Source: Psilocybe cubensis
Lineage: Eukaryota
Direction: 5' to 3'
Length of the DNA: 64,000 nucleotides
Assembly: GCA_017499595.2 (NCBI GenBank)
Contig: CM039004.1
Location: 62,001-126,000, forward strand
A program made the position numbers and the translations under genes. A model generated the notes under the pieces. It was given only the letters and a program-made list of their open reading frames with translations, searched no databases and was not told the origin of the DNA. The number at the start of each line of letters is the position of its first letter. Position 1 is the first letter of the stretch. Positions 26,977 through 58,631 of this stretch are shown in pieces.

Positions 26977-27029
26977 TCATTGATACTCGGAAACGAACGG
27001 CTATTGATAAGCGTTCTGGATATGATTTA

Positions 27030-30000: not shown

Positions 30001-30248
30001 ATCCAGAGAAATTTCCGGACAGAGAATTGGTACGACCACCAACAGTGATAACCGAGGACGGGGTGGAAGAGACAGTGATAGAGAAAATTGTGGATGCGAG
30101 AAAACGTGGTAGAGGGATGCAATATCTGGTACGATGGGCTGGATTTGGGAAGGAGCATGATGAGTGGCTTCCAGGGCGTATGCTTGAAGAGAATGAAGCA
30201 CTGGATAGATGGGAAGAGGAAGAGGCCGAGGACAAAGAAGACGAATAA
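27030..30248 (+). CDS. pol: Pol: RT, RNase H, integrase, chromodomain
   Basis: RT YLDD, RNase H TDAS and YTDH, integrase HHCC (H..GH..C..C) and D..D..E core, GPY motif, chromodomain YLVRWAGFGKEHDEW. Confidence 0.95.
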   Translation: MNPPTRDTLAAKSTAICEGLKTDAGIDQDKQRRSAMAKEQHLRSQVEPERAKQLVAAINEQISNIQFQQKLLRMDKEMKEKYRDRFPDRLPDNVDIPDHIYHRIRLVDKDKIHAGRGYAAPKKYHDAWKKLLDEHLAAGRIRPSSSEYASPAFCIPKYKNGVPDLSVPPRWVNDYREINKNTISDKFPLPRVDDILADCGKGKFFAKLDMTNSFFQTRVHPDDIHLTAVRTPWGLYEWVVMPMGGKNAPATHQRRMTDALRELIAQVCHVYLDDIVIWADTLEQLSERVEKVLKALRKAGLYCNAKKSVLFATEIIFLGHVISANGIHADPAKTDRIKKWPRPTNATNVRGFLGLTRYLAVFLPALAEHTSILSPLTSKECDRDFPKWTADHDRAFNAIKELVTGAECLTVIDYDDPEGKIYVTTDASDRRTGAVLSFGKDWESARPVAYDSYQLKDAEKNYPTHEKELLAIVKALKKWRSSLLGVKFEVYTDHRTLEYFQAQKEMSRRQMRWSMYMADFDFEICYIRGEENVAADALSRMPDEEPNSRFAACALAYTRNPNRAPRGFVGSVLSIEIDQEFVQAIKDGYDADPFVKQFRDGMQKHSLTGAREEEGLIYLGQRLVIPNDRKIRERLYYLAHDVLGHFGFDKSYEALHGSYYWPNMRRDLEKAYIPSCTECQRNKDRTTKPTGPLHPLPVPDKRLTSVALDFIGPLPEEKERDTILTMTCRLGTDIQLIATHSSWTTEQIAHKVVDHWICENGLMEELICDRDTIFTSDLWTAICKILNVKIKMSTAYHPETDGASERTNKTVNQAIRYYVDRNQKGWLDKLPRIRFAMMNTVNASTGYSGFQLKTGRSPRIIPTMAKANKDAPMVETSAREIIRKIEIDVKEAQDALHTAKIRQAAQANEQRGNEIVYQPGDMVMLSTKNRRRNYKRKGKKRVAKFMPRFDGPYVVEAAFPERSEYTLRLPNNPKTFPGFHASLLKPFVPNDPEKFPDRELVRPPTVITEDGVEETVIEKIVDARKRGRGMQYLVRWAGFGKEHDEWLPGRMLEENEALDRWEEEEAEDKEDE

Positions 30249-30300
30249 CGCCATAGAGAACAGACCCTTTCACGATGGAATTCTTCAGAGGGGGGAGGGG

Positions 30301-30599
30301 TGTAAGCCTGGAGACTTACCACACACGCAAACACGCACCGCAGGCGGACGCGCACAACAAAACGGCGCACAAACGCGAGCCCAGATTGGGTCTCGCTAAT
30401 CAACTTACAAAGATATTGAGACCGAAAGACAAAAGGGAAACAAATGACCTTCGTTGCTTGACTAGAACGCTACGCAACGAAGGTAAATATATTATAGTAA
30501 TTTACTACACATCATGTATAGACTAGAACGCTACGCAACGAAGAGAGCGTTGTCCCTTCTGTTTCAGCGAGTGAGGCTGCCGATCCCGACAGCCTTCCA
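30301..30599 (+). repeat. 3' LTR
   Basis: Copy of 24959-25257, preceded by the PPT and followed by the TSD. Confidence 0.95.
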
Positions 30600-33739: not shown

Positions 33740-33926
33740 AACCCTAATCTGCTACATATATAATTGTATTTACCAACCCTAACCAGCCTAATCTGTGCTT
33801 TTATGGTATTATCAAATCCCAACCAGCCCTAAAACCTAAACCCTAAACCATCCTAATCTGTATTTTTGTGGTCACCACCAACCCTAAACCATAAACCCTA
33901 ACCAACGCTAATATGTGTTTTGTGGT
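33740..33926 (+). repeat. Telomere-like subtelomeric module, copy 2
   Basis: Homologous to 13744-13896 (CCATCCTAATCTGTATTTTTGTGGTCACCACCAACCCTAAAC is shared). Confidence 0.8.
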
Positions 33927-34679
33927 GACAACATTAAGCGCCTGACAAAGAAACAAGGAATAGGATTGAAAACCATGAAATACAAAGACATAGTACAGGA
34001 CAGGGTTACCCAATGAGTGCATGCTAATCCCTCTTTACAGTCATATCGACCCACACGGGTCAAATTTTTCAACAAGCTCACCAACAATTGCACCTATGCA
34101 CCTATGCACATCCTCCCCGCCTCCCGATTCGCGATTCGAGCCCATCCCAATCGCCTTCATTCCACACGGCACATCCCGCTCTTAGCACCTAACTACTCGG
34201 CTCCGCTAGCGAGCTTTAAATTTTTTTTTTCTTCAAATCCCTAGAAGATTTGTGAAATGAGAAACAACGACACTCGTTGCAGCATGCTACGTACGTGGAA
34301 TGTGGTTCTGCACTGTTCTCGGGGATTAGAGGGGTGGGGCGTTTTGGATGGTGCATTTGAGTGGGTGTGGATAGGAGATTTCGGTGTGGATGTGGGGTTG
34401 GTGTAGTGTAGAAGAGATGCGGGTGTCTTGTACATGCCCTCATCGTCTAATCGACACTCTTACTCCAATATGCTGATGTTCAGGAGCCCCTGAGGGATGT
34501 TGTTTGCTTGATTCAGTCTGTGAGTGAGTGTAAAGTTGTACTGCAGCTGCTAATCCATTGTGGAAATCAATATTGTGGAGTTGGATGAAGTTAAGCGCCG
34601 AAATGAACGAGCTCTATATACATATAACTGAATGCAACACCACCACTCCCACTCCCCAACCTCGTAACAGGCTGCAACT

Positions 34680-39510: not shown

Positions 39511-39744
39511 TGTGTCAGAGGGTGTGCTTGTCATTGTTTGCGACGATGACGTGGTTGTGGTTGTGGTTGTGGACAACGAGCAATGTGGCAGATACGAGTG
39601 AGACTGTAAATGTGGCGGTGTTGTCGATGGCGCCGTCAATGTCAAGTCGAAGCTAAAGCCAAAGTTAAAGTGGTGGTGGTAGTGACGGTTCAAATGTGAC
39701 AAACAGTGACAAAGGTGTTTATGGCACAATGAAAGGCTGCGGCA

Positions 39745-40375
39745 CGGGGGTGACGGCGCAATGACACGCAGCAGAATGCATGTCGTGGTGGACGGCGAGT
39801 GGACGCGACGGCGGGACGGCAGCCGGCGAGGGAAGACGGCGCGGCGGCAGCAACAGGTGTTGAGTGGAGGCGGCAGCAGCAGCAGCGGCCCGGAGGTGGC
39901 AGCGCGACGACACGCAGCGGCGAGCGAAGGCGTCGGGCAGGTGGCGAGCACAAGTGTCGGGATGGCAAGCGCAAGCGTCGGGAACAGGCAGGAGGCCGGC
40001 CTCCACTTGCACGTACGACGCGCATACAAATCGAGGCTGGCCTCAGGTGGCCTCGACGCGTTTATTTTAAGACGGAGGCCGGCCTCCAGTGCCTGTCAAA
40101 ATTTATTTTTAGTCGGAGGCCGGCCTCCAGTGCCTGTCAAAAGTTATTTTTAGACGGAGGCCGGCCTCCAGTGGCCTCCATCAATTTGGAGGCCGGCCTC
40201 CATAAATTACATATTTAATTATGTAGCACCTCCGTATGTACAAAATAAATTATTTTAAAAGTGGATTTGGGGGTTTTCGGGGTTGAGGAATCCGAATCTG
40301 GCATCAGATTTCCAGAATTCTAAACAGGAGGCGCAATGCAACGAAGGCCCCCCCTTTGGGGGGGAATAAGCTTAG
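39745..40375 (+). mobile_element. Element X terminal block, copy X3 (more diverged; left boundary approximate)
   Basis: Five GGAGGCCGGCCTCC palindromes, hairpin and AATAAGCTTAG end, joined to the terminal repeat of PLE C. Confidence 0.8.
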
Positions 40376-40910
40376 CTAACTAAGTCTAACCTTAGTAGGA
40401 AGTAAGGTAGGCGTGTGAACTTCCGAACGGCATGTGATTGTGAAGGGCCGGATCTAATTTAGTACATGGGAAAAGTTACTTAGTACTTCGGGAAAAGTTC
40501 CTTAGTACCGTGGAAACATTTTTGATGGACCGGATCATGAACTGTCCAATTAAGATTCACAACAATCAATCAACTGATTGTTAGGTAAGGACCCAGGTAA
40601 GCTATTTATACTCTAGACATGTGAATATTCCCATGTCACGGTTACTCGGAGCCACGTAACCAGAGTACGCTATATCCATGTGATTCACATCACAGTCAAT
40701 AACCCACGATGTCAAAAGAACAAAAGTGTTGGATCCACTTTTGACAGGTTACCATGTGCCACATCGACCCGTGACACTCTGTTCATCAGAAACCTGTCTA
40801 ACTTGACAATAAACATTGACAGATTTGTGATAGTTGGTAAGATACATGACAGCTGCGCAGCATCACTTCACGCGCTGTCATCGGATGTCTAGAACATTCC
40901 TTCTAAGAAT

Positions 40911-40974
40911 AGCCACTGAAGAGTCTATAAAGACAAAAGGGCTGGTTGTGAACAACAGTTCACAGTCCTCTGGC
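40911..40974 (+). ncRNA. Hammerhead ribozyme, mutated core (GAAA to AAAA)
   Basis: AGCCA CTGAAGA GTCT-ATAA-AGAC AAAA GGGCTG...CAGTCC TC TGGC. Confidence 0.8.
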
Positions 40975-41081
40975 CTTCTTTCCATTTAACTCACAGTTTA
41001 AACAAGTCGCTCGCACCTCGCTTCGCTCGGTGCTCGCTCCCACCCTAAACCCCTCAACTTTGCTATTACCCAACAGCTACT

Positions 41082-42237
41082 ATGTCTTCCACCTACTCTG
41101 CTGCATTCTCTCGTGCCATGTCCCCCACCCTGGACGCACTCACCCAGGCTGTCGTCAACAATACAGTCTTTGGCGTCAACGACGAAGCTGGCCGCCACAA
41201 CGCCCTCATCGACGAGTTAGCCACTGTCGTCATCAAAAAAATAGCTGAGTGCCGCTCCATTGACCAGATCATAGACTGCGTCTTTTTTGACTATTGTGCT
41301 GCCCTTAGGGAGTTTCTCCTCAACCTCGCATCGTGGTGCGACAAGAGGGAAACAGTCAAGGCAAGCCTCGAGCGCCTTGAACTTGCCGTCAGTGCAGGCA
41401 ACACCCCCAATCGCCTTCGGGTGAAGGCTCCCGAGTTCCAACTCACGAAGGAATTCGCGGATGCCGGGTCAGCGGAGGCTCTTCGAGTCTCCTCTACGTT
41501 CTCCACCACTCGTGACGTCTTCCAAAAGGCGATCAACGACGGCGCCATCCAGGCGAAAAAGGACGAACTGGCCTTTTGGGATGATAAATGCGCACTCAAT
41601 AACTGTTATGAAGCTGCTGCCCTCATTGTTAAGACAACTTACGATGATCGCAAATCCAGCTATAAGCTCCCCGTTTTCTCTACAGACAACAAGGGAGTTC
41701 GTCGAATAACAGATTGGGTAGTGTCACCGCAGAAGAAGGCTGAATGCAGCGCATTGCAAACTATTTTGCCAGCCATCTTCTCTCATATCAAACAGATTGT
41801 CAACTTGCGCCACCGCGCTTTGGCAATCAAGATTGAGAAAAAGCGGTCGACTGCGGCAACAGCCGATGTCGAGATGGCCGACGCGACCAAACCAGGTCCG
41901 TCGATTCAATCCCTTATTGATAAGGGCTTGAATGCACGTCTCAAAAAGCTCAACCTTGGATCTGTGGGCAAGAAGGCAAGTTTTCGTAACCCTTCACCCA
42001 TAATTTTGGATACTAATTACTACTCTAATTATCCAGACTTTGTCTGGCCAGAATTCGTCCAAGGCTCCTCAACCTCAGGCCAAGAAAGCTGGCCCTTCAA
42101 AATTCAAACCCTTGTCGACACCTTCGCAGAAGAAGCCCCAAACCAAGGTTTCCAACAAGGTCGACAACAAGAAGAAAGGGAAGAGGAGAGCTCCCGTCAA
42201 GAACAATCCAAAGGGAAAGGGAGAGGCAAGAGCCTAG
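41082..42237 (+). CDS. PLE ORF1 (predicted 364 aa if the GC-AG intron 41976-42036 is spliced), with a basic C-terminal tail
   Basis: ATG 41082, AAG|GCAAGT donor, CTAAT branch, CCAG acceptor. Exon 2 reads TLSGQNSSK...KKKGKRRAPVK...ARA*. The stop position is conserved in copy B (TAA 2727-2729). Confidence 0.65.
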
Positions 42238-44609
42238 ACGCGCGGTCTAATGTAGTATCACTTACGTCGGTAAGACCCGCCTTCCCCAACTCTATTCCTG
42301 ACGATATACTCACCATGACTAAAACAGACGCAGTTTCTTTCGTACACTTACATACTCCAATATCATTCTTGTTGGCTGGCCAGTATCGTAGTAGTGTACA
42401 TTGTAGTCCTGGTGTTTCTGTCCCTGTTAATGTAGCAAACGATCTCTCTCTCGGACTTAATTATATGTTTTTCACTCTGCCTTCTAAAAGTCTGATCATG
42501 CAAGCATGGAATGATTTTCAACGAAGAATAAGATGGCGTATCTATTTTTTGTTTAAAGAAGGCATGAATAAACCTTTTGATCCAGATTATGGAGTAAGTT
42601 CTAAGAAAAAAGAAAAACCTCCTGTATTACCGCAATTTATGGAACTTGGCCTTTCGATGGGACGTCGGTACGTGCAACGCACGATCGCAAGTATCCCGGA
42701 AGAAGCCCTTACGGAGATGCGAAAGCACGCGTTCTCTCCTAAAAGGGACAAGATCTGTAAGTTTCTTATCGATAACAACTATGTTATTACGATGACAGAT
42801 AAGAATCTTGGCCTCGCGGTGTCTGAACGCGACTGGATACTAAGGAATGAGCTCAATCTTCTTGAAGATGAATGTAACTATGAAGAGTTAGAATTCGAAG
42901 TTGCGCAAGAAGTTATGAAGAGCAAAATGATTCAGATGCAAACTCTCGCACGTACCGTCGAAGATGAACATCTGTTTCTATTTGAACTTGGGTTATCTCG
43001 ATTCTTTCTATCGAATGTACCGGAAGACGGATCATTGTTCAAGTATCCTCAATTTCATGGTATACCTAAAATCCACAAGAAACCTACTGGATTTAGGCCC
43101 ATAATTCCGTGTCACTCTGTAGTTTTTAATCCTGCAGCCAAGTTTGTATCAAAAGAGCTTAAGCCGATTATTAAATCGACTCCTTCAATCATTCACGGAA
43201 CAAAGGATCTCTTTACGAGATTAAGCCAATTGCGTATAGACTCCAAAAGACAATGGTATTTTGTCACTGGAGATGTAGTTGCTTTCTATCCCAATATCCC
43301 GTTGGACTTGTGCATCGAAATCGTTTGTAGTATGTACGAGGAATGGTTACTCAACACTTCGGAAGAAAATACTGCATTAGCCCATATTAAACCAAATTCG
43401 TTAGAAAATAACTTGATTAAATTGGGCATCTTTAAACGTGCCATCGAGATTGGCAATACGCAATTGATAACACAACATGGGTCTAGATATTTTAGACAAA
43501 AAAATGGCCTCGCAATGGGCGTCGCGGATTCTCCGGACCTTGCTAACCTCTTTGGAGCCCATTTTGAAATAAAGTCAAAAATCTTAGACCACCCGAATGT
43601 GGACTTCTATGGAAGGTACATTGACAATTGTTTCGCAATTGTTTACGCCGAGTCCGAAGCACTTGCACTTAATCTTATTAAAGAAACAATAAAGTTCGAT
43701 GGTTGTGTTATCGAATGGGCTGTTTCCTCGTCGGGATGTCAATTTCTCGATGCTTTTATATTCAAGGAGTCTGGAAAACTTCATTGGAAGCCATTTGTCA
43801 AGACAGGAAACAACCGAGAATGAGTTCCATGGGTATCACATCATCCTTTGGACGTCAAACGTGGCGTCTACATTGGAGAGTTATCCAGGTTAGCCGTGCT
43901 ATGTAGTACCAAGGAAATCTACATCGGAGCAATTAGAGACCTTAACGCTCTCTATTTGATGCGCGGTTATCCCGAAAACCTAGTCATGTCTTGGTGTAAG
44001 AAGAATATACAAGAACGTTGGGAAAAGCGATTTGCTTTACGAGTCGCAGAGCACGACGAATCCATTCTTGTACTTAAAACCAGGTTTGATCAGGTATGGA
44101 ATTGGTTTTCAGCTGCTGAACTTGGAAAGACTATTACCGAGTACTGGTTGGCATGGTATGAACATGCCGAGAAAGGTCTGTATAGTGCAGACTCGTCCAG
44201 ACCCCTTATCAAACCAGATCCAAATTACGTTCACGACCTCGATGATGTCCGCCCGGAGCTGTTCACACAGATCCTCGTGGACGGAGAAACTGAGTTCGTA
44301 CCGGATTTGAGGAAGATAGGACTACTCGGAAGTCGTTGGATAGTATCGCAAAAACGCAATACTAATCTTTTCGACCTTGCAAATGTGTGGAAGAAAACAG
44401 TTTTTTGTAAACTGGATGAAGACATTGCTGAAAAAGGTGGTGTTGTTCCCGAAACTCAAAACGTCAATGAAACTTATCATTCTGCTCTAGTTGAAGCTGC
44501 TGAACAGATAAGTATCGAAAGTGATAACGAGATAATACTTCATAGACGTTCAATCTCACAAGAGAGGGAACATCCAGAATTTGGCAGAATATCCAAATCT
44601 TACAACTGA
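41082..44609 (+). pseudogene. ORF1-RT read-through frame of PLE C, disrupted
   Basis: Single frame from 41082. Relative to copy B it has CGA to TGA at 43821-43823 and catalytic YIDD changed to YIDN. Confidence 0.88.
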
Positions 44610-44646
44610 TGAAAAGAATACTAGCGCGTAAGGCGTAAAGCATTAG

Positions 44647-44786
44647 AAAAAAACCCTAACCTTAAGTATTCCTTGCTATAAAGTAACAAACATCTACTTA
44701 CAAGCAACACATTGGATTAAATAGCTAAACCTAAACCTAAACCCTAAACCCTAAACCCTAAGCCCTAACCTAACCCCAACCCTAAG
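44647..44786 (+). repeat. Internal telomere-like tract of element C; the putative intron 44662-44724 has a mutated donor (TTAAGT)
   Basis: Homologous to 5140-5279. Confidence 0.78.
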
Positions 44787-45321
44787 CTAACTAAGTCTAA
44801 CCTTAGTAGGAAGTAAGGTAGGCGTGTGAACTTCCGAACGGCATGTGATTGTGAAGGGCCGGATCTAATTTAGTACATGGGAAAAGTTACTTAGTACTTC
44901 GGGAAAAGTTCCTTAGTACCGTGGAAACATTTTTGATGGACCGGATCATGAACTGTCCAATTAAGATTCACAACAATCAATCAACTGATTGTTAGGTAAA
45001 GACCCAGGTAAGCTATTTATACTCTAGACATGTGAATATTCCCATGTCGTGGTTACTCGGAGCCACGTAACCAGAGTACGCTATATCCATGTGATTCACA
45101 TCACAGTCAATAACCCACAATGTCAAAAGAACAAAAGTGTTGGATCCACTTTTGACAGGTTACCATGTGCCACATTGACCCGTGACACTCTGTTCATCAG
45201 AAACCTGTCTAACTTGACAATAAACATTGACAGATTTGTGATAGTTGGTAAGATACATGACAGCTGCGCAGCATCACTTCACGCGCTGTCATCGGATGTC
45301 TAGAACATTCCTTCTAAGAAT

Positions 45322-45385
45322 AGCCACTGAAGAGTCTATAAAGACAAAAGGGCTGGTTGTGAACAACAGTTCACAGTCCTCTGGC
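45322..45385 (+). ncRNA. Hammerhead ribozyme, mutated core (GAAA to AAAA)
   Basis: Same sequence as 40911-40974. Confidence 0.8.
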
Positions 45386-45453
45386 CTTCTTTCCATTTAA
45401 CTCACAGTTTAAACAAGTTGCTCGCACCTCGCTTCGCTTGGTGCTCGCTCCCA

Positions 45454-45490
45454 CCCTAAACCCTAAACCCTAAACCCTAAACCCTAAACC
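45454..45490 (+). repeat. Buried telomere (CCCTAAA)5CC; probable healed break
   Basis: Perfect repeats abut the predicted third exon of the minus-strand zinc-finger gene. Confidence 0.9.
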
Positions 45491-47024
45491 TTGTTGGACG
45501 ACATATTGCTTCTACCGTGTGGGGTTAATATCAGCGTTGTTTTAATGGAAATAAACTCACGATTGATTGAACTGAGCAATATTATGTGTCATCCCGAACG
45601 TATGGTGTTCGTTCACCAGTAGCTGTACACTGGCCAGTGTGCGATGGGCTGCGAGCTGGAGTTGTTTGCCCCATGGCTCGGTCTTGGCGTCTGGTAGCCT
45701 AGTAACCTCCTGGATGTCGACAGGGGTCAACCCTTTCACTGCGTCAAGCCATCCTTCGCGGAAGAGAAACAAGGACAGATTTTGCGGGTCCTCAATGTTT
45801 TGGATGGGCAACTGTGTGTAATCGGGTGGAGGCGGCATTGTTGTTCCAAAAACAGTCGAGTATGCAAAGGGAATGTCCTGGCAAAGTGAGAGGCAAGAGG
45901 TGTCCACTGGAAAATACCGCTTGCTTGGGCCTTTTGTAAGTATCTGCCCGTACATCGTGTAGCAAGCGCGCTGCGTGATAGGCACTTGGCAACGCTGCCC
46001 GTTAGACTGGTGACCCTGCAGGCTCAACAACGAGTTGTAGCCACGGTGGCATTTGGAACAAAAATGGAGCTGATCAGCCTCGATAGGAATCCCAAAAATC
46101 AGACGGATTGGTCCAGCGCTGTAGGCTATCTCAGCCAGCGACACAATCCCGTATTTCCGCCGAAGATCTTCGAGCAATGTGGGGCCTGGTGTATAGTGTG
46201 CATTGTGCTGCTTGACGTGTGCGCACACCAACGCCGGCTCAATCGCTTCCTTACATTCTATGCAGATAACAATCTTGAGAAAAGTGTTGATAACAATTCC
46301 AAGGGCCGGAAGATTGTGCGTGTCGTCGTAGATCATTGTGTGGTCATCGGGTACAATGTCGTAGAGCGAAACATCTACTTCCATCGCAGTGGTGGGCGTG
46401 GCGCAAATAGGCGGTGGCTGATGCATGCCCGGAGGTGGCGGTGTCATCCTCTGCGCAGATACGTTGCGCAGTGGTGCAGGAGAAACGGGCCCAGGTATCA
46501 TCGTTGGGGGCGATCCTGGGCTCGAGACCAACGGACGCGGCGACCCCTGGCTGCTGATAGCGCGCGGGCCAAGAAACGTGCGCGTAGATGGCCAACTTGC
46601 CGCAGGGGTTACCGGCGCAGGAATCATTGTTGGGGGCGATCCTGCCCTCGAGCCCAAGGGACGCGGCGACACTTGCCTGCTGGGAGCGTGCGGGATAAGA
46701 AACAAGCGCGTAGATGGCTGATGAAGCTGTGAAGCGGAAGGTGCGGCTCTTGTAGGAGGTGCAGCTCCCCAAGATGGGCGAGGGAGCTGTGATGAAAACA
46801 TGGGCGCCGGCGACGGTGGAGATAATGATCGCTCGTTGTCTGAGGTCTGCTGGGAAACCTCCAACGATGGTTCTGCGTGTGAATCAGCAAAGTGCCGCTG
46901 TAGTATGGATTTAGCATGAAATATCAAAACACATCGGAAACTAGCTCACCTGTAAACTGTAGGGCGTACTGTACGCCTTGCGGCAGTGTGTGCATGGAAA
47001 TTTCATGTCGGCGTTGCGTGGCAT
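45491..47024 (-). pseudogene. N-terminus of a probable telomere-linked RecQ-helicase (TLH)-type gene (C2H2 finger plus DUF3505/OrsD-like domain), 3'-truncated
   Basis: Exons 47024-46950, 46897-45561 and 45511-45491. Motifs CTHC..AYSTPYSLQ|RHFADSH and IVICIECKEAI..HVKQH...CSKC..Y..LQGH...RYFPV. The helicase domain itself is not in the window, so the family call is inferred. Confidence 0.6.
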
Positions 47025-47095
47025 GACAGTATCGCCTACTGTGACCAATCGCTGGTTGTCTTTTCGCCTTGCACGACCTTCGTGTCCGAGTGGTA

Positions 47096-49849
47096 CCTAC
47101 CATCTTTTTGATAAAACAATAGCAAGTGTTAGCACACTCTTTTTATAACTGTTGATGGTTTTATCACAAAGCAAAATAATGAGAAGACTGGTCTATTTCT
47201 CATAAGTTTACTTCGCTTTTTCAAAGCCTTTTTCATTAGATAATACCCTTCTTTCTCATTATCTTTAGGGCGCTTTTTCATTACCTTTTGATTAGATACT
47301 AGCCTGGTTATTTGATAAGATTGTTCTACATCAATATATCTTATCTTTGCTTGGTCATTTCTGATGCCATGCCATCAAATCAGGAACACTGTGGGTACTT
47401 CTAGGCCATGTCTATCAATCCATCAAAGCTATTATTAAATAAACTTTTCTCTCCTCGGCCCCTTGGTCTATAAATAGTGCTCATCCTATGCTACTTTTGT
47501 GCATTGCTGGCAATGCATTGGGCGCTTTTGGGGGCATTTCTGGACCGTTTCCCTTGGTATTTTTTGGTATACCTATAGTTTTAAGGTGTCCCAATTTGAA
47601 TCTGAAATCAGAATTGCAATATCTTTACTCATTATTGTGCAATTAAGCGTACGATGTTTTGATCAAAAAGCGCACCTTGAATAGCACCATCCAGGGGCTG
47701 GTATGCACCATTTTGACTATGCAATTATTTTTTATTTATAATAGACGGAGTACATGCCAAGTTTCAGATCAATTGGAGCAGTGGAACCTATTGAACTAGC
47801 ATATGCATCCTACCTCTCCTCCTACCCCTTGTATGAATACCTTCCTGATCAGATAAATTCAAGCCTAACTGGGATAAAATAGGAGCTTATTATACCAATT
47901 TTTAGAGCCCAAAATCTTGGTGTAATTCTAAGATTTAAGGGTACTACCCCCCATCCTCTCCAGAATTTGTATATTTTATTATGGGGTAGAATGGCCATTC
48001 CCAGCACATATAGGTATTTAAATCTGCTCTATATAGTACCACAAACGCAATACATATGTTTGAAACATTCTGGATGAAGTAGAACACCTTGGTTATGAGG
48101 CTAATAAGAAGGTATTAGATGTGCAATATAATATGACCATATCACCGCTTATACTTCACCAAAATGCACATATCTTACATTCCCAGATAGCTACCAAAGT
48201 CCTCTACATATTATATTAATGGTGCCAAATAGCCAGAACGCTTAACAAGATGGTACAAGAAGAATAAGCATTATTGTTCAAAAATGGAGGAAAAGCGAAA
48301 TATGATGTGGAAGACAACACTTATAAAATACATAAACTATACGGCTGTGTAGCCCTAAATGACACCTATCTGTGGTATATAGACTCATGGAAATCCGATG
48401 AGTATGAGCTGAGATATGTCAAAATGTATCTCGGAGAAAGGCCAAAGAGGTGACCACAAACAAAGCATAAATAAAGGCCAATATCCATCCGGGTCTCTGA
48501 TGGGTTCTTCAACACCTTTCTTTCCATATCTCAACACCCACTGGTCCGATGCACAACATCCTTAATGTTCTGGAAAGCTACATTTTGGGGCTATACTATC
48601 CTGCTTTTATATTTCCTGATCTTGAATGTTTATATATGGTAAATGCGAAAATACTGTGCATTTTGATGAAGATTGGTATTCTCTCTGCAGTGTCTCATCT
48701 AATGGATGGATCTTTTTGAACCTTGAGAATAATATTTAGTAGGGACCTGTAGGTATTTGTAGACGTCAAGAATATGATTTATGACAATGTATTTGTAGAG
48801 ATATGGCCTGATCAATAACCTACCATACCTATCCTCATACCCCCCCTTAAATCAGTATGTTCCCTTGTTGAAGAGGGCTTTCAAGGGTAAATTTTGGACT
48901 CTATGTACTGTTAGTAGTGGATCTACATGTCTTTCAATGGTCTGAGAGCCCATCCTATCCCATAATAAAATACACAAGTTCTGGAGGGAGTAGGGGGTAG
49001 TACCCTTAAATCTTAAAGTTTCACCAATTTTTTAGGCTTTAAAAATTGGTATAATAAGCGCCTACTTTATTCCAGTTGGGCTTGAATTTATCTGATCAGG
49101 AAGGTATTCATACAAGGGGTAGGAGGAGAGGTAGGATGCATATGCTAGTTCAATAGGTTCCACTGCTCCAATTGATCTGAAACTTGGCATGTACTCTGTC
49201 TATTATAAATAAAAAATAATTGCATAGTCAAAATGGTGCATACCAGCCCCTGGATGGTGCTATTCAAGGTGCGCTTTTTGATCAAAACATCGTACGCTTA
49301 ATTGCACAATAATGAGTAAAGATATTGCAATTCTGATTTCAGATTCAAATTGGGACACCTTAAAACTATAGGTCTACCAAAAAATACCAAGGGAAACGGT
49401 CCAGAAATGCCCCCAAAAGCGCCCAATGCATTGCCAGCAATGCACAAAAGTAGCATAGGATGAGCACTATTTATAGACCAAGGGGCCGAGGAGAGAAAAG
49501 TTTATTTAATAATAGCTTTGATGGATTGATAGACATGGCCTAGAAGTACCCACAGTGTTCCTGATTTGATGGCATGGCATCAGAAATGACCAAGCAAAGA
49601 TAAGATATATTGATGTAGAACAATCTTATCAAATAACCAGGCTAGTATCTAATCAAAAGGTAATGAAAAAGCGCCCTAAAGATAATGAGAAAGAAGGGTA
49701 TTATCTAATGAAAAAGGCTTTGAAAAAGCGAAGTAAACTTATGAGAAATAGACCAGTCTTCTCATTATTTTGCTTTGTGATAAAACCATCAACAGTTATA
49801 AAAAGAGTGTGCTAACACTTGCTATTGTTTTATCATAAAAAGTGGTAGG
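47096..49849. repeat. Long inverted repeat: arms ~47096-47993 and ~48950-49849, spacer ~950 bp, AT-rich
   Basis: Arms are reverse complements with very few mismatches over ~47110-47867 and are more diverged at both edges. No TSD or ORF seen. Confidence 0.92.
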
Positions 49850-50328
49850 GACTAGTGCGTGTCCACCATCGTCTTCTGTTTCCCTCCTGCGTCGCTTCGC
49901 TGGTTCAGATGGATCTGGAATCAAACGGTTAGTACATGTAACCGCTATAAAACACCCTACTGACCTTCCATCCCCGTTTTTTGTTGGAAAATGCTTGGAA
50001 GTTTGGTGTCTGGGTGAGGGAAGGGAACAGGATAGGCCCACAAACAACGCTGGGGGTGGAAGGGGTTTATATCTGAGAACGACGCCCTACGCTCTGCGAT
50101 GGAAGGCGAGAATATTTGCCCTCCAGAAGACGTATAGGGGTGTAAAGAAGAGATCGATAGTTAATTGACTGTCGTTCCGATAAGAGGAAAGGGCTGAATT
50201 AATCAGACGCCTGAGTGCACGACAGTCCGAAGGCGTCCCAATCAAAAATCGCCCCCGACACAATAGACGGCGGCAAGGCGTTGTGCGCAAGCATATTGGG
50301 AGGCCAGGTCGTGTGTAACGCGCACAAA

Positions 50329-50952
50329 CCAGAGAGCTCTGGTTGCACAATAACGCAACAGCCCACGACCAGAGATCTCTGGAGGCAGGTATATCGATAC
50401 GCGATCACAGAATCAGGGTAGGAGGTCGAGTGGAACACTTATACCAGGCCGACGGAATCCTTGGACGAAGTGGAGTCAAACCAAAGAGCTTTGGTTTGTA
50501 GCGTTGGGGGGAACCACGACCAGAGAGCTCTGGAGGCGGATGGATATGTGGGGGTGCATTGACAGGAGCAAGCTCTTGAAGATCGAAGCGCCGTGAGGTG
50601 TGGTGCGACACGGAGAAGGATGGACAAGGCAGTACCAAAGAGCTTTGGTACTGACGGCCCACGATCCACAACCAAAGAGCTTTGGAGGTGGACAGAACCC
50701 GCTATCTCTTGAAGATTGAAGTGCCGTGAGGGGGGGTGCGACATGGAGGAGGATGGACTAACCAGTACCAAAGAGCTTTGGTACTGACGGCCCACGATCC
50801 ACGACCAAAGAGCTTTGGAGGTGGACAGAACCCGCTATCTCTTGAAGATCGAAGTGCCGTGAGGGGGGGTGCGACACGGAGGAGGATGGACTAACCAGTA
50901 CCAAAGAGCTTTGGTACTGTTTGCCCACGATCCACGACCAAAGAGCTTTGGA
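50329..50952. repeat. Array of ten quasi-palindromes CCA(A/G)AGAGCT(T/C)TGG, partly within ~133-bp tandem units
   Basis: Copies at ~50329, 50369, 50481, 50520, 50635, 50672, 50768, 50805, 50901 and 50938. Confidence 0.85.
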
Positions 50953-51093
50953 GGTGGATGGAGAACAGGAACACTCTGGGGTTGCGATCAACAGGGCCCG
51001 CGAGCGGTCACGTGATTAATTGAAACTCCGCTCTGGGCGTTTTTTCAACCTTCCAATGCTAAGTCCACTTCCTTCTTTAGCACGCACGCACAC

Positions 51094-51610
51094 TACAGAA
51101 GCTCTTCTGTAGCACGCCGCGTCTGCCATCCCAGAAAGGTTACAGAAGCTCTTCTGTAGCCACTCTGGTTCTTCCCTGCCCCGACGTTTGACACTTCATG
51201 TCAGCCGTCCGAGATTCGTTACAGAAGCTCTTCTGTAGCCAGCCTCGTTCTTCCCTCCACCCCCATTTTTGACTTCACGTCTGTCATCCGAGATAGGCTA
51301 CAGAAGCTCTTCTGTAGCCGCCCTCACTCTTTCCTCCGCCCTTGTTTCCAAACGCATCCACCAACACCCACGGCCCCGACCTCTGAGAACTACAGAAGAT
51401 CTTCTGTAGCGATCTGAGGGCACTGCAGAAGCTCTTCTGCAGGCATCTGGATCCATCCCGATCATCCCAACTGTTCTGCTTGTAGCCACCCTCGCTCTCT
51501 CCTCCGCCCTTGTTGCCAGACGCGTCCACCAACACCAACACCCCCGACCTCTGAAAACTACAGAAGATCTTCTGTAGCGATCTGAGGCGACTGCAGAAGC
51601 TCTTCTGCAG
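51094..51610. repeat. Array of eight quasi-palindromes CT(A/G)CAGAAG(C/A)TCTTCTG(T/C)AG
   Basis: Copies at ~51094, 51141, 51220, 51298, 51389, 51423, 51558 and 51591. Confidence 0.85.
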
Positions 51611-51739
51611 CCATCTAAGGCCATCGCCATCGTCCCGATCCTTCTTCTCTGCGCCCACAACACATACCTGAAGCGCCGTTCCTCACCGTAAGTGTTCGCG
51701 TTCGTTGCCCACATATGCTTGTTACTTACTCTGCTGCAG

Positions 51740-54700
51740 ATGTCCCAGCAAACCCACGTCGATTGGGCCCAAGGGTCCGCGTTTGTCCAGAAGGGCACCA
51801 TATACGTGTCCCCCAACTGCAAGCGTGTCGTCATCATCCCACCCGCTGAAGTCGACGTCACCAACCCCTTCGAACAAAAGACAACACCAGCAGCACCTCG
51901 GCGACGAGACCTGGATTTAGAGGCCCTCAAGCAGCCAGTGCGCTGGCACGATCAGTACGGATGGATCGCCTTCATACCCTTGGCGCCATCCTTCGTGTCC
52001 TTGCCGTTTAATTTTTTGTGCTGGTCTCCAAAGATTTTGCGCAATAAACCGCACAAGTCTCTGGCCACGTATGAAATGGAGTGGCACAGTGTGAAAGAAT
52101 GGCGCCAATTGGATGAAAACATCACCCTTCTGTGCGAAAAGATCCGCTTATGGTGTCGCGTTCCTGGAACCCCACCTCCTAGCCCCAAAAGCTTCGGTTA
52201 CGATCTCAGGTATAGCTCTGAAGCAGACGCGCAAAGGAGCTTTGAGGCCACCCGAAACGCATTTATCCTGTGGATGGGCTACCTGTCGTATCTCGTCGCC
52301 CAAAGTCGTCGCGAGATCTATTCAAAGCACATCAAGCACGATCCCAAAAGCCCCGTCCCTGCATGGCATGAACGCCTCCGCGCTAAGCATCCTGACATCT
52401 CAGAAGTATGGCTGGATGGCTTGTATCATTCCAACGCGTTTTTGTTTAACGCCAGGACCCCTTGTGTCGGCATGGTCTACAAGTTGAGCAGCACCCACGC
52501 GACACGCCCTCCCATCGAATGGCTTCTGGAACACCATGTTCCAGTGTATTATCCGTGGCGGATGCGGGAAGAGGAGATCTTCCTCACTCATAAAATACTC
52601 AATCTTGAACTTCGCCCCCCCCCCCCGCGCGACTTGTTGGCGGCAACACTTACCGACCTATTCAAGTCGATGGACGTGTCTCTTGCAGCCGCCTTTGCGC
52701 GCAAATTTTTCAATAAATCTCATTCGACGGAGGGCCTCACGATGAAGTCGCTGGGAGATGAGTACTCCACTACTTTGGTGTATTCTATCCTCAGTAACGA
52801 TTTCGCCCACAACTCAGAGGCATTGGATCAGCACATGTCCCAGCCATATGAAGAATTGGAAAAAAAGCTCCAAAAGAGAGACGAGGAACAGCGTCAGCTC
52901 GCCATTGACAGCGCCAACCTGCCTACGCTGCGCATGATCGAACTGGCGAATGAAAACCACAAGTTGCTGACCTCTGTGCACAATGACTGGGACGCTTACT
53001 GGGCTGCAAGGGTGGAAGAACGACGACAGATTCTGGCCAAAGAGACGCCAGAAGCTAGACAGGCTCGGCTGAACCAAGAGAACAACCCATCGGTGGTACG
53101 TAGCAAAGTATTTGTCTGGAAAACGCTGGTGTCCACAGAGGGAGCCAGTGTTTACATGCGCGAACACATCGCAACGTCACAAAACAGCATTGAGGAGGCC
53201 AAACTTCGCCCACACCGCAAGGTCTACAACGGTGTGACAGACAAATGGGATCTCTGTCGAGATTTGGAACCACCAGCCGAGTTGGCAGGCGCATCCGCAA
53301 TGTTGGAGCAGCGCAATCAGGCACAGACAAGGCCTGCTAGAGGCCAGCATCGCCGCGGTAGAGGTGCACGTCCCGCAAAACAACCCAGGCAGCACCCAAA
53401 ACCAGCACCTGCCGAGGAAGAGTGGGAAGGCGAACCCTGGTACAATACCATTGAACCTGACCCCGATGCGCCGGTGGCCTCAACGTCGGCCCTTCCCCCC
53501 GCTTGTGATCCATCCCCGCCCCCTTTGCCTCCTGACATCCCGACACCCTCATCATCGCGAGACAGACCCCGCCGCGCACCCACGACACCCCCTCGCCCCA
53601 CGCTAGGACGGCGCCTGCGCAGTCGCTCGCCAACACCGCCAGAGGTTGCAATGCACTCTCGCCCACAAGCATGTCGTTCCCCAGAAAGCGAGTCGTGGGT
53701 CCAACAGAGCCCCCCTGCCGTCGTCGAAGATTTCGAGATGGAGGAACCAGGCCCATCTGTTGAGGATGAAAATGCGGATGTTGAGATGACCATGGACGCG
53801 CCTGCCACGGATGTTGTGCAACCCCAGCCCATTACACCCGACAACGATATGGTCAGATGCCTGCGCCAATCCTATGGATACCTCCCTGGCACAACGACGA
53901 CAGCCTGCGCCGCGTCAGACTGGGATGAACTTGTCAAAACCTTTGGGTTTACAGAGTTACTTACCCCAGAAGTTGCCCTGGATGCTCAACAACAGATCAA
54001 ACAGTTTTATCTGGCTTGCATTGAACCCACAAGCACAGAAATGCCGGCCGCCCTCTCTGACCTCAACACGCACAGCCTGACATCCCTGTCTCGTCTGCTG
54101 GACCTCTTGCAAATACACCGCCCTCACCAAGATCTTTTTGTTTTTTCAAAACCTCGTTCAGAGGAACACGAGTGGATGTTGGGTGTTGAAACAGCGGAGA
54201 TCGCCCTTTACGTGTGTCGGCTCAGGTTAGAGCACTCCTGGGCTCGCATCGACTCTCTGACAAAAATGCTGCTGGAGAGAGGTGTGCCCTGTCGCACTCT
54301 CATGGGCATTGAAATGTCGGGTCGCTGCTCCACTGTCCAGGAGCCGTACACCCCTCGATCTGTCCGCCCGTCAGCGTATAAATTTGGTGTTGATGACTTT
54401 GAAGCATACCGATTGCAGTGCGAGAACATCATCAAACACCAACACCACGGTCGGGCTGCCTTGCTGAGGGGTGGATTGGTTGGCAGGATAGCCAGTGAAT
54501 ATCTGAGCGTCGACGATGGCCTGGCTGGGCCCTCTAAGGAAATTATTCAGAACCGGCAGGGGTTCATCGTACCAGCTGGCGACACGACTTGGTGTTATTG
54601 CGACGACCAGCTCACGGAAAACGAGCTGTCCATTATATGCGGCACCTACACGCTGTACACAGGTATGTTTTCCTTGTTTATTCTCAATTTTATGCACTAA

Positions 54701-55020
54701 CAACATTTTTCTCAGCTACTAAAGGTCAAATAACAGTAAAATTGTGGTTCCCTCCCCCAAACCTGTGGCAGGTGCCCCCCAGCATGAGCGGATCACAATG
54801 GGTGGAATGGACGCCTGCCAACGAGGCATGGTACCGTGAACGCGTAGAAGACATCCGCACTCGCCAGGCCCAGCCATTGACAAGAGTGCAATGGAAATCA
54901 ATATTGCGCGGCACTCCTCCCAGTAGGAAGCTTCTGGCGGCAGCGTCTCAACAAGCTCAGGCCTTTGTCAACGGGCACGTACCGGTGGTGCCAACTTATC
55001 GAGTTCGCCCAGGGCTGTAG
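51740..55020 (+). CDS. Large hypothetical protein (~1075 aa; exons 51740-54662 and 54716-55020) carried by element X
   Basis: Long open frame with a GT-AG intron at 54663-54715 that is conserved in copy X2. C-terminal motifs RAALLRGG, DDQLTENELSIICGTY, WFP and EAWYRER resemble a repetitive agaricomycete family of unknown function. Confidence 0.8.
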
Positions 55021-55239
55021 TTACTTTGTTAATGTAAGTGTTTTTCCATGTAAGAATAGCCAATTCTAACAAAAATATGTAGATATATGCGTGTTTTTTT
55101 GTTCAAAATGTCATATAAATTTGTTTTTTGGCGTCTACACAACAGAGCTCCCGTGAGATATTTACAAATGGATGTACAGGTAAGATGAGTAGTCTAAAAT
55201 ATGCTGACAGAATTATACTACAGCAAGGCCAACGCGTGA

Positions 55240-56417
55240 CGCAACCAAAACAGCAAACCAGCAGCGACAGGAGGCAAGCGGAGGCGACGGCGGGGCGACA
55301 GGCGTCGAGTCGAGGCAGCGGCAGCAGCAGCGTGGGTGTAGCGGCGCAACAACATGCAGCAGAGTGCGTGTCGTTGTGGCAGCGAGTGGACGCGGAGGCG
55401 CGACGACAGGCGGCGGCGGGGCGACAGGCGGCGACGGCGGGGCGACAGGCGGCGACGGCGGGACGACAGGCGCTGATGACAGAATGACAAGCGCTGACGG
55501 CGGAATGACAGGCGGCAAGGGGAGGGCAGCAGCGGCAGCGGCGGCCCGGTGTTGCGGCGCAACAACACGCAGCAGAGTGCGTGTCATGGTGGGCGGCGAG
55601 TAGACGCGACGGCGGGACGACACGCGGTGACGGCGGGACAACAGGCGGCGATGGCAGGATGACAGGCGGCGACAGCGGGTTGTGGGCGGCAAGTGGACGC
55701 GAAGGCGCGACGATAGGCGGCAACGGCGGGACGACACGCGTTGACAGTGGAACGACAGGCGGCGAGAGGAGGCGGTAGCGGCAGCGGCCGCCCGGTGTTG
55801 CGGCGCAACAACACGCAGCAGAGTGCGTGTCATGGCGGGCGGCGAGTAGACGCGACGGCGGGACGACACGCGGGTGACGGCGGGACGACAGGCGGCGATG
55901 GCAGGATGACACGCGGGGTGACGGGCTGAACGACATGCGTCGAGTGGGAGGCGGCGGCAACAGCAGCGGCCCGGAGGTGGCAGCGCAACAACATGCAGCG
56001 GCAAGCGCAGGCGTCGGGCAGACGGCGAGTGCAAGCATTGGGACGGCGAGCGCTGGCGTTGGGACGGCGAGCGCAAGCTTTGGGACGGCGAGCGCTGGCA
56101 TCGGGAGACAGGCGGGAGGCCGGCCTCCAGTGCCTGTCAAAAATTTATTTTTAGACGGAGGCCGGCCTCCAGTGCCTGTCAAAAGTTATTTTTAGACGGA
56201 GGCCGGCCTCCAGTGGCCTCCATCAATTTGGAGGCCGGCCTCCGTAAATTACACATTTAATTATGTAGCACCTCCGTATGTACAAAATAAAATATTTTGA
56301 AAGTGTATTTGGGGGTTTTTGGGGTCCAGGAATCTGAATCTGCCATCAGATTTCAGGATTTCTGAACAGGAGTCCCAATGCAACAAAGGCCCCCCCTTCG
56401 GGGGGGAATAAGCCTAG
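55240..56417 (+). mobile_element. Element X terminal region, copy X4 (element extends left through the 51740-55020 gene, possibly to 45491)
   Basis: GC-rich repeats, four GGAGGCCGGCCTCC palindromes (56115, 56157, 56198, 56230), hairpin and AATAAGCCTAG ending at 56417. Confidence 0.82.
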
Positions 56418-56994
56418 GAGACTGGTGGTACATTGCGAAATGGTTAGAGGTGCGTAATCACTACTGCATCTGCATCTCGGACTCCTAATGATTCGTTTAG
56501 TCACCAGATTCCTGCTCAGTCCTCGCCTTCACCCACCGTCGGCTACCGCTCCGTCCCCATGAAACGATTCTGTAACATTCCACCTACTGAACGCAAGCAA
56601 TAAAACGAGTGTGAGGCGTCTAATCACGAAAAGGACAGGGAAAATACACCCTTAGTAAGTGTACTGTTGGATTTACCATGTCTTGTAACCTTCTCGTGCA
56701 TTGAAATGATTTCTCTCGAACTCTACCCTCAGTATCACTTCCACCCGCTGCCCATATTCCTGGTGTGCGCTTTAGCAATGAAAGGTTTTTGGTATGTCGC
56801 ATGGTGCTGTTGCAATTTAACATTAATATCTCCCCAGGGCCCAGAAACATTCACACTCCCGCATATAATCGCCCCACCTTGTCATTCAGATTCATTCAAA
56901 GTCCGGCCGTTTTGGTTCGACTCTATGAGCTTGAAAGCGCTTGGAGAGTACAGAAATAGTACACTGATTTCTCGCACATTACCCACAGGGATTA

Positions 56995-58189
56995 TGGCGT
57001 GTCAAGTGCACTTTTATTATCGAGCCGCGCCACTTTAGGTTAGACACTCATTTTACGTCAGATTTGGTGTCTAAGGGTCCATCAAAACGTGGGTCGATTT
57101 TTATCTTATCGAGCTCCTTTTCATGACAGAGCTTCTTATTTTTAATTACCGAGAGAGCCTTTTCGGTGAGCGAGCCTTTTTTTTGTCGAACGAGAGCTTT
57201 TTTCGATAGGCAGAGCCACATTAGGATCTGAATTCTTTCAGAGAGAGACTTTCAATGTTGATGACTTGTGAACTGCGGAGTGCTGCCAAAGTGAATTAAA
57301 AGTTATACATTACATTTCAATCCTTATACGAAAATGCACGTCATTCTAATTCTACTTTGCCAATAGCAAAGAGTATATAACTCTGTAAAGTACAATAATA
57401 CATACCTACCTGAGTTACTTGTGGCATAGCTAACTCATTTCGACTTCCCTCCATTTCTCGTCAATTAGATTCAAAACTGCTACTCTTATTGCCAAGTCAC
57501 GGTTTCTCCAAGGCTCCAGTACCTCGCTCTAACTTGTGGGCTTAACGGCTTGCTCTTACAGAGTATAGTGTCGATATATAGTTTGTTTTCCATTTGATCA
57601 CACTTGTGCATTAATATTTTCCTATTTATTCTCGTTTTAATCAGACCCTTCTATCATTAATCAACTTTCCGCATTTACCATTCTTACACACTAGTAATAA
57701 CAACTTTCTACCTTGTATAACATGTCATATATCCTTCATTTGTTGCCGCTTAGTTTTACCAACCAGCCCATGTCCGTAACTTATATCTACAAATATATTC
57801 GGTTAATTTGTAAACAGTTCTCTGATAGATGGCACAACATACATCTATTACTCTCCTATCAGGTTGATTTGTTCTTCCGACAGCCTTGACTTGTTCACAT
57901 TGTTGCTGCAATACATAAGTCATCAAAGTTGAAAGGCTCTCTCTGAAAGAATTTAGATACTGATGTGGCTCTGCCTATCAAAAAAAGCTCTCGTTCGACA
58001 AAAAAAAGGCTCGCTCACCGAAAAGGCTCTCTCGGTAATTAAAAATAAGAAGCTCTGTCATGAAAAGGAGCTCGATAAGATAAAAATCGACCCACGTTTT
58101 GATGGACCCTTAGACACCAAATCTGACGTAAAATGAGTGTCTAACCTAAAGTGGCGCGGCTCGATAATAAAAGTGCACTTGACACGCCA
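56995..58189. mobile_element. Non-autonomous TIR element (MITE-like), ~1.2 kb
   Basis: Inverted arms ~56995-57270 and ~57916-58189 (TGGCGTGTCAAGTGCAC...), flanked by TA on both sides. No ORF. Confidence 0.72.
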
Positions 58190-58631
58190 TATCCGATTGC
58201 TCATTGAAGAGCTTAAAAATAATGTGGAGTGCTCAGCAGGGTGGGATTCGAGTAGGTCAGAGTAGGTAGATTTGACGAGGGGTCTGTTCTCACTATTTGA
58301 TTCCAACAAATCAGTGATTTTCCTTTGCCTTATTTTCGTTTGTTTATTTCTTCCGAGTCTAGATCTACCTCTTCGTCGAACACTCCACCGACGCTACTAC
58401 ACCCCCCGAGCTCTCCACAACGCCTCTTTTTCTGTCCAAATTACCCCTACTGCCGCCAACTCTCATTGCCACGTTCCCATACTTCCAAACCTTTGATGTC
58501 TATGAGGTGGACAACTGTGAATGGATATGTATATGTTTTCTGGTCACTGGAGTATTGATCAGGATGAAATGGACAAAGGGAGCACGTCGGGAACTGGAGC
58601 ATTACCGCAGGTGTGGTGCATTCGACGAATT

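Follow-up and report, generated by a model that had tools for sequence, protein, structure and literature searches.

In a 64,000-nucleotide stretch of the Psilocybe cubensis genome (GenBank assembly GCA_017499595.2, contig CM039004.1, positions 62,001 to 126,000 of the forward strand; hereafter the window), the block at 45491-56417 is best read, in our judgement, as the centromere-side remnant of a decayed subtelomeric repeat unit of the telomere-linked helicase (TLH) type, whose inner terminus became attached to eroded chromosome ends. We favour TLH-assisted cutting and joining as the route, and we hold this reading at about even confidence. By analogy, the unit would be comparable to the yeast Y' elements and the Magnaporthe TLH regions, and would stand at a former physical chromosome end. 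From the telomere side, the block holds the remains of a TLH gene on the minus strand, palindromic repeat arrays, an intact gene for a protein of 1075 amino acids (aa) on the plus strand, which we call the partner or X gene, and a structured tail that ends at the terminus. An initial annotation had taken these features for one contiguous, autonomous unit of about 11 kb. All the listed features are present; they do not form one intact unit, however, as the left edge at 45491 is a healed break, and autonomy is contradicted by a TLH gene that is both truncated and interrupted by an insertion.

A fixed terminus with four different joins

The inner end of the block is a discrete terminus (56388-56418, plus strand) that consists of a hairpin, GGCCCCCCC-TTC-GGGGGGG, followed by AATAAGCCTAGG, of which the last AGG (56416-56418) is common with the flank. 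The same terminal sequence, ...GGCCCCCCCTT(C/T)GGGGGGGAATAAGCCTAGG, ends at 20243, 23095, 40375 and 56418, that is, four copies (X copies) with four right flanks, which bears out the earlier proposal of a fixed end. At 20243, the terminus runs into the interior of the partner open reading frame (ORF) at the equivalent of position 53742, with AGG common to both. The flank that it meets at 23095, again over a common AGG, has a paralog at 9640 with unrelated, non-X DNA on its left. At 40375, it abuts a 680-bp retroelement tail precisely at the 5' edge of that tail, with AG in common, and at 56418 the DNA on the right is unique. The proposal that the joins use short shared bases without a target-site duplication (TSD) holds as well, since the overlaps are AG or AGG and no TSD accompanies them.

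Two other copies of the 680-bp tail carry a telomere-like tract ahead of the same 5' edge. The join at 40375 is the most informative of the four, because its edge was probably once a physical chromosome end; therefore, the terminus appears to be joined to DNA ends, not to internal sites. All four X copies are co-oriented with the telomere-primed retroelements of the window.

The terminus is preceded by a structured tail (55261-56243, plus strand) with 21-bp GC-rich arrays at 55261-56106 and 41-bp repeats at 56115-56243, each of the latter holding one GGAGGCCGGCCTCC palindrome. As RNA, the last 319 nt (56100-56418) are predicted to be strongly structured (z = -9.15). Within the window, 53742-56418 is the only part of the block that is repeated. 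The second X copy, distally truncated, spans 20241-23095 (plus strand) and starts inside the partner ORF, directly behind the terminus at 20243; two shorter tails at 19627-20243 and 39736-40375 (plus strand) likewise end at the terminus. These three copies are cut on the telomere side at the equivalents of 53742, ~55261 and ~55320. On the telomere side of the two short tails, nothing X- or TLH-like follows within the window, and the alignment at their 5' boundary is highly repetitive.

The DNA to the right of the 23095 terminus (23093-24771) is duplicated nearer the telomere at 9640-11150, with 94-96% identity in two blocks. The duplicate lacks an X unit on its left, and we therefore take it as a later duplication of inner subtelomeric sequence to a distal position.

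TLH gene, partner gene and terminus in the proposed full units

The TLH cluster at 90% has eight members, seven of them fungal, and each of the five with accessions has a member of the partner cluster at the adjacent accession or locus tag. The pairs, TLH first, are KAH9477263 with KAH9477262 (0011181), KAH9477259 with KAH9477258 (0011177), KAH9485931 (0002848) with KAH9485930 (0002847, beside which lies a fragment, 0002846), KAH9479027 (0007601) with KAH9479028 (0007602), and KAH9478125 (0008578) with KAH9478126 (0008579). Partner genes recur at every fourth locus tag (0013484, 0013488 and 0013492; 0011177 and 0011181), as would be expected for tandem multi-gene units. The gaps in the locus tags (976, 886, 893 and 817) fit contig sizes of 3.52, 3.34 and 3.08 Mb, and from this numbering we infer that the TLH and partner genes stand at contig ends, as first or last genes, TLH lying outermost in every case. 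Several partner entries are without a listed TLH neighbour, namely 0013484, 0013488, 0013492 and 0010360 and the fragments 0007593, 0009465 and 0009467; TLH genes beside these could belong to other clusters. The 90% TLH cluster also lists P0164, a 57-aa Klebsiella fragment named 'acyltransferase family protein', which is almost certainly an artefact of clustering or contamination.

How the units are arranged is suggested by P0168, a TLH paralog of 1805 aa. Its last 53-55 residues (1751-1805) match each of the four termini, on the minus strand, with 83-94% identity. The protein reads ...HRADWETHHHDDC and then, across the junction, PKLIPPRRGG..., the latter being the reverse-strand reading of the terminus. 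The TLH coding end here abuts the next unit's terminus on the telomere side, and the full units therefore appear to be head-to-tail repeats. The repeated unit, as deduced from sequence, would run from the TLH 3' end to the TLH 5' end and on through the repeat arrays, the partner gene and the tail to the terminus. Translation of the 53 codons past the junction is doubtful, because the window's own copy has a stop there. The TLH gene is multi-copy and lies beside telomere repeats: in the window the repeats abut the truncated ORF, and the contig-end placement would follow from the numbering. The five adjacent pairs, together with the P0168 junction, support the suggestion that TLH, the partner gene and the fixed end belong to one unit.

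A putative recombinase-like domain in full-length TLH

The full-length reference for the TLH gene is P0007, a 1634-aa protein annotated as 'ATP-dependent DNA helicase tlh1'. It has DEAD and Helicase_C domains in Pfam, and its helicase region (~1140-1510) matches RECQ1, BLM, RECQ5, RecQ and WRN with E values from 2e-19 to ~1e-8, those for RECQ1, BLM and RECQ5 being 2e-19 to 1e-13. The best match, RECQ1 at 2e-19, confirms for a full-length homolog the RecQ helicase that the initial annotation had anticipated. Residues 512-1140 have no match in Pfam or among PDB sequences. A conserved block in this part (~700-1044) sits at the position expected for the 'TLH domain', a segment of ~250 aa that precedes the helicase.

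When P0007 was aligned with nine homologs (n=10, 19-43% identity), a series of invariant or near-invariant residues emerged in the order R in RG(S/T)E, K in DKTSH, R in WR(S/N), H in MHS, and Y nine residues later. R850, the E of the first motif, K884 and R973 are present in 10/10 sequences, H1003 in 9/10 and Y1012 in 8/10, the two misses at Y1012 being one gap and one visibly broken gene model. With the histidine of HxxR missing, the set resembles the R-K-R-H-Y pentad of topoisomerase IB, a likeness drawn from residue order. A structural model of the middle domain gave recombinase/topoisomerase-IB-like fold matches, with a pLDDT of 62.8 and weak confidence over the putative catalytic loops. 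The idea that full-length TLH proteins carry a recombinase-like segment thus gains support from fold matches and from the R/E/K/R/H/Y columns, but not from Pfam, Foldseek or hhalign, whose results are weighed in the Discussion. In a PDB profile search with TLH, helicases alone made up the best 60 of 254 matches, and an Atlas search with the middle domain returned unnamed fungal clusters alone.

The available text of two sources describes TLH proteins as C2H2 motifs, a 'TLH domain' and RecQ motifs, with function unknown (PMC1635262; F. oxysporum TLH preprint). The word 'recombinase' does not occur in the available text of either. We found no earlier statement of a recombinase-like TLH domain in the literature covered, which leaves out most subscription journals, including the 2009 TLH-domain paper.

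The TLH pseudogene and its inserted transposon

The ORF at 45557-46945 (minus strand) shares 95% identity with the N-terminus of P0007, in keeping with its first description as a TLH-like gene on the minus strand. A tblastn search with P0007 placed its residues 49-511 at 46939-45560, 20-65 at 47087-46950 and 3-20 at 49915-49862. The main part of the pseudogene (45491-47087, minus strand) is made up of its last codons (45491-45511), a 49-nt GT..AG intron (45512-45560) and an exon that extends to 47087. Past the intron, the coding sequence reads S-N-M-S-S-N and then passes directly into GGTTTAGGG telomere repeats; therefore, 45491 is a healed chromosome end, formed by de novo telomere addition. 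As the addition lies inside TLH coding sequence, 45491 is ruled out as an element boundary. The cut falls near codon 519 of 1634, so that the N-terminal third is kept and, as judged by tblastn with P0007, the RecQ helicase part is lost from the window's copy. The TLH N-terminal region gave matches to zf-C2H2 (E 0.006-0.008) and OrsD (E 0.03-0.04, with 0.04 for the window's copy), all below cut-offs, with CxxC...H...H patterns visible; in the TLH homolog P0162, OrsD is matched at E 3.7e-8.

A piece of TLH exon 1 lies upstream at 49862-49915 (minus strand; P0007 residues 3-20, 100% identical), and the P0163 and P0167 models have a weaker additional upstream match at 50294-49965. Between the two parts of the exon sits a non-autonomous, foldback-type inverted-repeat transposon (47088-49858, no strand assigned) of 2771 bp with arms of ~900 bp. 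The arms, 47105-48039 and 48905-49839, are 935 nt long and 95% complementary (blastn: 903 nt, 97%). Both flanks carry GTGTCC as a 6-bp direct repeat (47082-47087 and 49859-49864), the segment is missing from the intact paralog P0007, and no ORF of more than 81 aa is wholly contained in it. The long inverted repeat in the earlier account is thus real, but it is not part of the unit's architecture, a role that is ruled out by its being a separate, GTGTCC-flanked transposon that splits TLH exon 1.

Intergenic arrays and the partner gene

The divergent TLH and partner genes are separated by tandem repeats with palindromes (50573-51621, no strand assigned). The repeat and palindrome arrays announced by the initial annotation could be located precisely: 133-bp repeats in 2.9 copies at 50573-50958 contain ACCAAAGAGCTTTGGT palindromes, and eight palindromes of the TACAGAAGCTCTTCTGTA type lie at 51094-51620 on 79-, 168- and 33-bp repeats. 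Both palindrome types, ACCAAAGAGCTTTGGT and TACAGAAGCTCTTCTGTA, have an AGCT centre. The palindromes are candidates for protein-binding sites or for a bidirectional promoter serving TLH and the partner gene.

The partner gene, first noted as a ~1075-aa gene, proved to be an intact two-exon gene (51740-55020, plus strand; exons 51740-54664 and 54703-55017, followed by the stop). Its exons match P0001 at 99.9% and 97% by tblastn, and in a protein search the identity was 100% over 97% of the ORF. The family is very large: a six-sequence profile retrieved 2151 representative clusters with E<=1e-3, and still 358 with E<=1e-30. Of the eight relatives looked up, five were named, and all were hypothetical proteins of Agaricales (Psilocybe, Coprinopsis, Hebeloma) or an unnamed 'hypothetical protein'. 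A model of the partner protein, which has two domains (1-533 and 695-1075), reached a pLDDT of 81.1 and matched no known fold. PF28437 is given as a precomputed Pfam label on P0001, P0002, P0004 and P0006; a Pfam scan with a release lacking PF28437 gave no match for P0001, P0004, P0006 or 16 further members.

Metagenomes provided 13 loci with relatives of the partner gene at 24-40% identity. TLH was found by tblastn at none of the 13, only three of which have more than 8 kb of upstream sequence. In the pairs L008/L010 and L009/L011, homology stops 300-480 bp past the partner gene and no hairpin-CTAG is present. Locus L009 contains two copies of a partner relative in perfectly complementary arms of 3415 nt (1-3415 and 8997-12411) around 5.6 kb; this may be a genuine palindromic duplication or else an artefact of assembly.

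The window as a stack of chromosome-end additions

Five CCCTAAA tracts are present on the plus strand (2229-2256, 5947-5974, ~33827, 44735-44762 and about 45454-45490), and none is expected by chance, as judged from shuffled window sequence. TTTAGGG telomeres are reported for the related genus Stropharia in the available text of PMC8874372. Since the plus strand carries the C-rich telomere repeats, the left side of the window faces the chromosome end.

The element next to the healed break is probably a Coprina-like, endonuclease-less retroelement of the Penelope type (41049-45490, plus strand), with a reverse transcriptase (RT) ORF at 41049-43823 and (CCCTAAA)5 at its 3' end. It is an addition onto the healed end, outside the unit. 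A paralogous element at 2598-5974 (RT ORF 2598-5105) also ends 3' in telomere repeats; over 2653-5974 it is 96.8% identical to the first. In both, the sense strand points toward the centromere. RVT_1 matches are weak in both RT ORFs (E 5e-6 for 2598-5105 and 1.9e-4 for 41049-43823, each below the Pfam cut-off), and the element at 41049-45490 has no PDB sequence match; the Penelope/Coprina assignment draws on anatomy and literature. Endonuclease-less Penelope-like elements of the Coprina type are described as primed on telomeric overhangs (PMC13159263 and PMC8557442, available text). Because the RT ORFs are each followed by a telomere tract, as in Coprina-type elements, we consider the window a stack of chromosome-end additions.

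Both Coprina-like elements share a layout of an internal telomere-like tract (e.g. 44722-44790), the aforementioned 680-bp tail and terminal CCCTAAA repeats. The 680-bp tail also stands alone at 40371-41052, with only ~1.3 telomere units ahead of the next element, and may be a separate, short terminal-addition element. The stretches 13743-13896 and 33772-33927, 91.7% identical, have degenerate CCCTAA/CCTAAAC units interspersed with a ~35-bp motif and may be old, decayed telomere or junction tracts. Segmental duplications with 77-100% identity are abundant across the window.

Several other features were noted. A complete Ty3/Gypsy chromovirus occupies 24959-30599, with protease, RT, RNase H, integrase and chromodomain ORFs at 25270-30248; its 299-bp long terminal repeats are 100% identical, and its insertion is therefore probably recent. 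A second, unrelated inverted-repeat element lies to the right of the 56418 terminus (56989-58194; arms of ~285 bp with 96% identity, 631 bp apart) and is probably another small foldback or MITE-type transposon. The ORF at 11739-12509 (minus strand, 257 aa) has sub-threshold matches to AID/APOBEC-like deaminases (SNAD4, E 0.024; NAD1, E 0.031) that are too weak for naming. None of the eight ORFs to the right of the 56418 terminus has a Pfam match, so that the initial annotation's view of this DNA as host-like gained no support. An Rfam scan of 40000-58000 returned two sub-threshold matches to miRNA models and zero ribozymes.

Discussion

In the history that we propose, the steps are read from the sequence; the succession in which they are placed, and the reason why the end shortened, are our interpretation. 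An intact unit would consist, from the telomere side, of TLH transcribed toward the telomere, palindromic arrays, the partner gene, read toward the centromere, a structured tail of 1.4 kb and the terminus; the intact TLH protein would have, in order, a zinc-finger/OrsD region, a tyrosine-recombinase/topoisomerase-IB-like domain and the RecQ helicase. At this chromosome end, the DNA would have shortened into TLH, telomere repeats would have been added at 45491, and Coprina-type elements would have been added onto that telomere; a foldback transposon would have inserted into TLH exon 1. As for spread, the terminus may have been joined to eroded or broken chromosome ends at an overlap of 2-3 nt (AG or AGG), with copies then amplified into head-to-tail arrays and exchanged between ends by recombination. 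The most likely catalyst of a terminus-specific cut and join would be the unit's own TLH, in which a putative nicking-joining domain is fused to a helicase. We favour TLH-assisted joining because the position of the candidate enzyme gene, at the very end of the unit, is like that of integrase genes, and because a nicking-joining domain combined with a helicase follows the logic of known rolling-circle transposases.

A number of observations weigh against this reading. Catalysis of the joins by TLH is deduced from sequence and a model. The HxxR histidine is not conserved in the middle domain, no Pfam recombinase family is matched in any of the ten TLH proteins at E<=10, Foldseek with the middle domain found no recombinase, and hhalign of TLH against six bacterial and phage recombinases gave a probability of 0.2. 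Of the four X copies, three have lost their telomere-side part, which needs extra erosion or fits copying from RNA better; simple site-specific integration leaves this distal truncation unexplained. Linkage and contig-end position come from the order of accessions and locus tags, not from DNA. Likewise, the left end of the unit is known solely through one protein model, P0168, not as DNA, and in view of the stop in the window's own copy, the open frame across that junction may be gene-prediction read-through.

Among the alternatives, the main rival, which we consider unlikely, is an RNA-mediated terminal addition resembling that of Drosophila HeT-A, in which a partner transcript ending at the terminus is copied onto free chromosome ends by an RT acting in trans (Coprina-type or telomerase) and TLH is a passenger. 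It offers the simpler account of the distal truncations, since the 3' end stays constant and the opposite side is truncated at variable points (53742, ~55261 and ~55320 equivalents). The join of one X copy to another is head-to-tail, in the orientation of the sense strand of the telomere-primed retroelements; the junction overlaps are of 2-3 nt, one of them coinciding with the 5' boundary of a retroelement fragment; the 3' tail is predicted to fold strongly, with the z score of -9.15 mentioned above; and RT-bearing elements are interleaved in the same array. However, neither poly(A) nor a telomere-repeat tract is found at any of the four junctions, the unit encodes no RT or Gag-like protein, and Rfam offers no ribozyme that could make the precise end. 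In addition, TLH is antisense in the full unit, and full units are apparently tandem, so that a single mRNA template cannot explain whole-unit copies.

Two further explanations were weighed. That TLH and the partner are host genes in a passive subtelomeric duplicon, copied by break-induced replication or ectopic recombination with the terminus as a boundary or hot spot, strikes us as quite improbable, though the window is indeed rich in segmental duplications (77-100% identity). In the available text of PMC1635262, the M. oryzae TLH regions with their discrete boundaries are described as subtelomere domains with no claim of transposition, and S. pombe TLH as expressed only at telomere crisis. 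Recombination, however, carries the flank along. In the window, a single nucleotide position has become joined to four unrelated sequences, one of them the interior of the unit's own ORF, and for this a defined molecular end or a site-specific cut is needed. A duplicon would also leave the conserved R-K-R-H-Y recombinase-like domain in the linked protein unexplained. Helitrons insert between A and T and end 3' in a hairpin followed about 10-12 nt downstream by CTRR. The terminus has a GC hairpin, GGCCCCCCCTTCGGGGGGG, then AATAAGC and then CTAG, which puts the hairpin 11 nt from the end; together with the lack of a TSD, the fixed end and the variable upstream extent, this would suit the 3' end of a Helitron-type rolling-circle transposon that had captured the partner gene. 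We nevertheless regard such an origin as very unlikely: the base after the terminus is T at none of the four joins (G, G, C and G), no Rep/helicase (RepHel) or PIF1-type domain was found in scans of 5, 11 and 51 window ORFs, every copy points the same way with respect to the telomere tracts, one join coincides with what was once a chromosome terminus, and the unit is linked to TLH at the inferred contig ends.

Comparison with known systems places the proposed TLH-type unit among several others. With Helitrons it shares a 3' hairpin ~11 nt before a CTAG end and the absence of a TSD, but it has no A-T target, no RepHel, and an orientation fixed at chromosome ends. Cryptons and other tyrosine-recombinase DNA elements of fungi, among them the Starship 'captain' elements, resemble it in the recombinase-like fold predicted for TLH and in conserved R, K, R, H and Y; as in Cryptons, the unit has neither terminal inverted repeats nor a TSD, joins at short shared bases and carries the candidate enzyme gene at its extreme end. 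Unlike in Cryptons, the domain is fused to RecQ and matches no Pfam recombinase, the unit is found at chromosome ends in one orientation with truncated copies, and no circle was seen. The Y' element of S. cerevisiae may itself have begun as a mobile element, and Y' copies are separated by telomere repeats, unlike the single join between X copies in the window, which has none. Both are helicase-encoding subtelomeric units of several kb that can be tandem at chromosome ends (for Y', available text of PMC1635262), a likeness of organization.

The closest described system is that of TLH regions I and II of M. oryzae with their helicase-associated repeats. In the available text of PMC1635262, TLH is transcribed toward the telomere with tandem repeats just upstream, a position like that of our intergenic arrays at 50573-51621; the inner side meets chromosome-unique DNA at a discrete boundary marked by a short motif; and copies have been shortened by loss of chromosome ends and disrupted by transposons. 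The P. cubensis unit differs in having the 1075-aa partner gene and the hairpin terminus, in its AG/AGG joins, including those into its own ORF and onto a retroelement edge, and in the Coprina elements stacked on its healed end. Coprina, Athena and HeT-A/TART resemble it as co-oriented, head-to-tail, 5'-truncated end additions (PMC8557442, available text). Unlike the Penelope-like elements and HeT-A/TART, the X unit encodes no RT, and its end bears no telomere repeats and no poly(A).

To the picture from M. oryzae, the present analysis adds the partner gene with its very large family, the hairpin terminus with four microhomology joins, the TLH model that spans a junction and the predicted recombinase-like fold. 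In the window, a succession of events at one end of a chromosome can be followed: sequence was lost, the telomere was healed, Coprina elements were added and the unit captured the end again. That TLH genes occur at the chromosome ends of fungi has been known for more than twenty years, and the available text of PMC1635262 and of the F. oxysporum TLH preprint states their function as unknown. With a recombinase-like pentad domain, a linked partner gene and a terminus with at least four different joined ends, the question "why are TLHs there?" becomes testable, in the form of whether TLH cuts and joins the terminus of its own unit. A bolder generalization, which we find rather unlikely, is that TLHs are the transposase-like enzymes of DNA elements that seek chromosome ends, analogues of the Helitron Rep-helicase that cut at a hairpin terminus and join it to uncapped ends. 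If true, this would account for the presence of TLH genes, and perhaps of yeast Y' elements, at chromosome ends across fungi.

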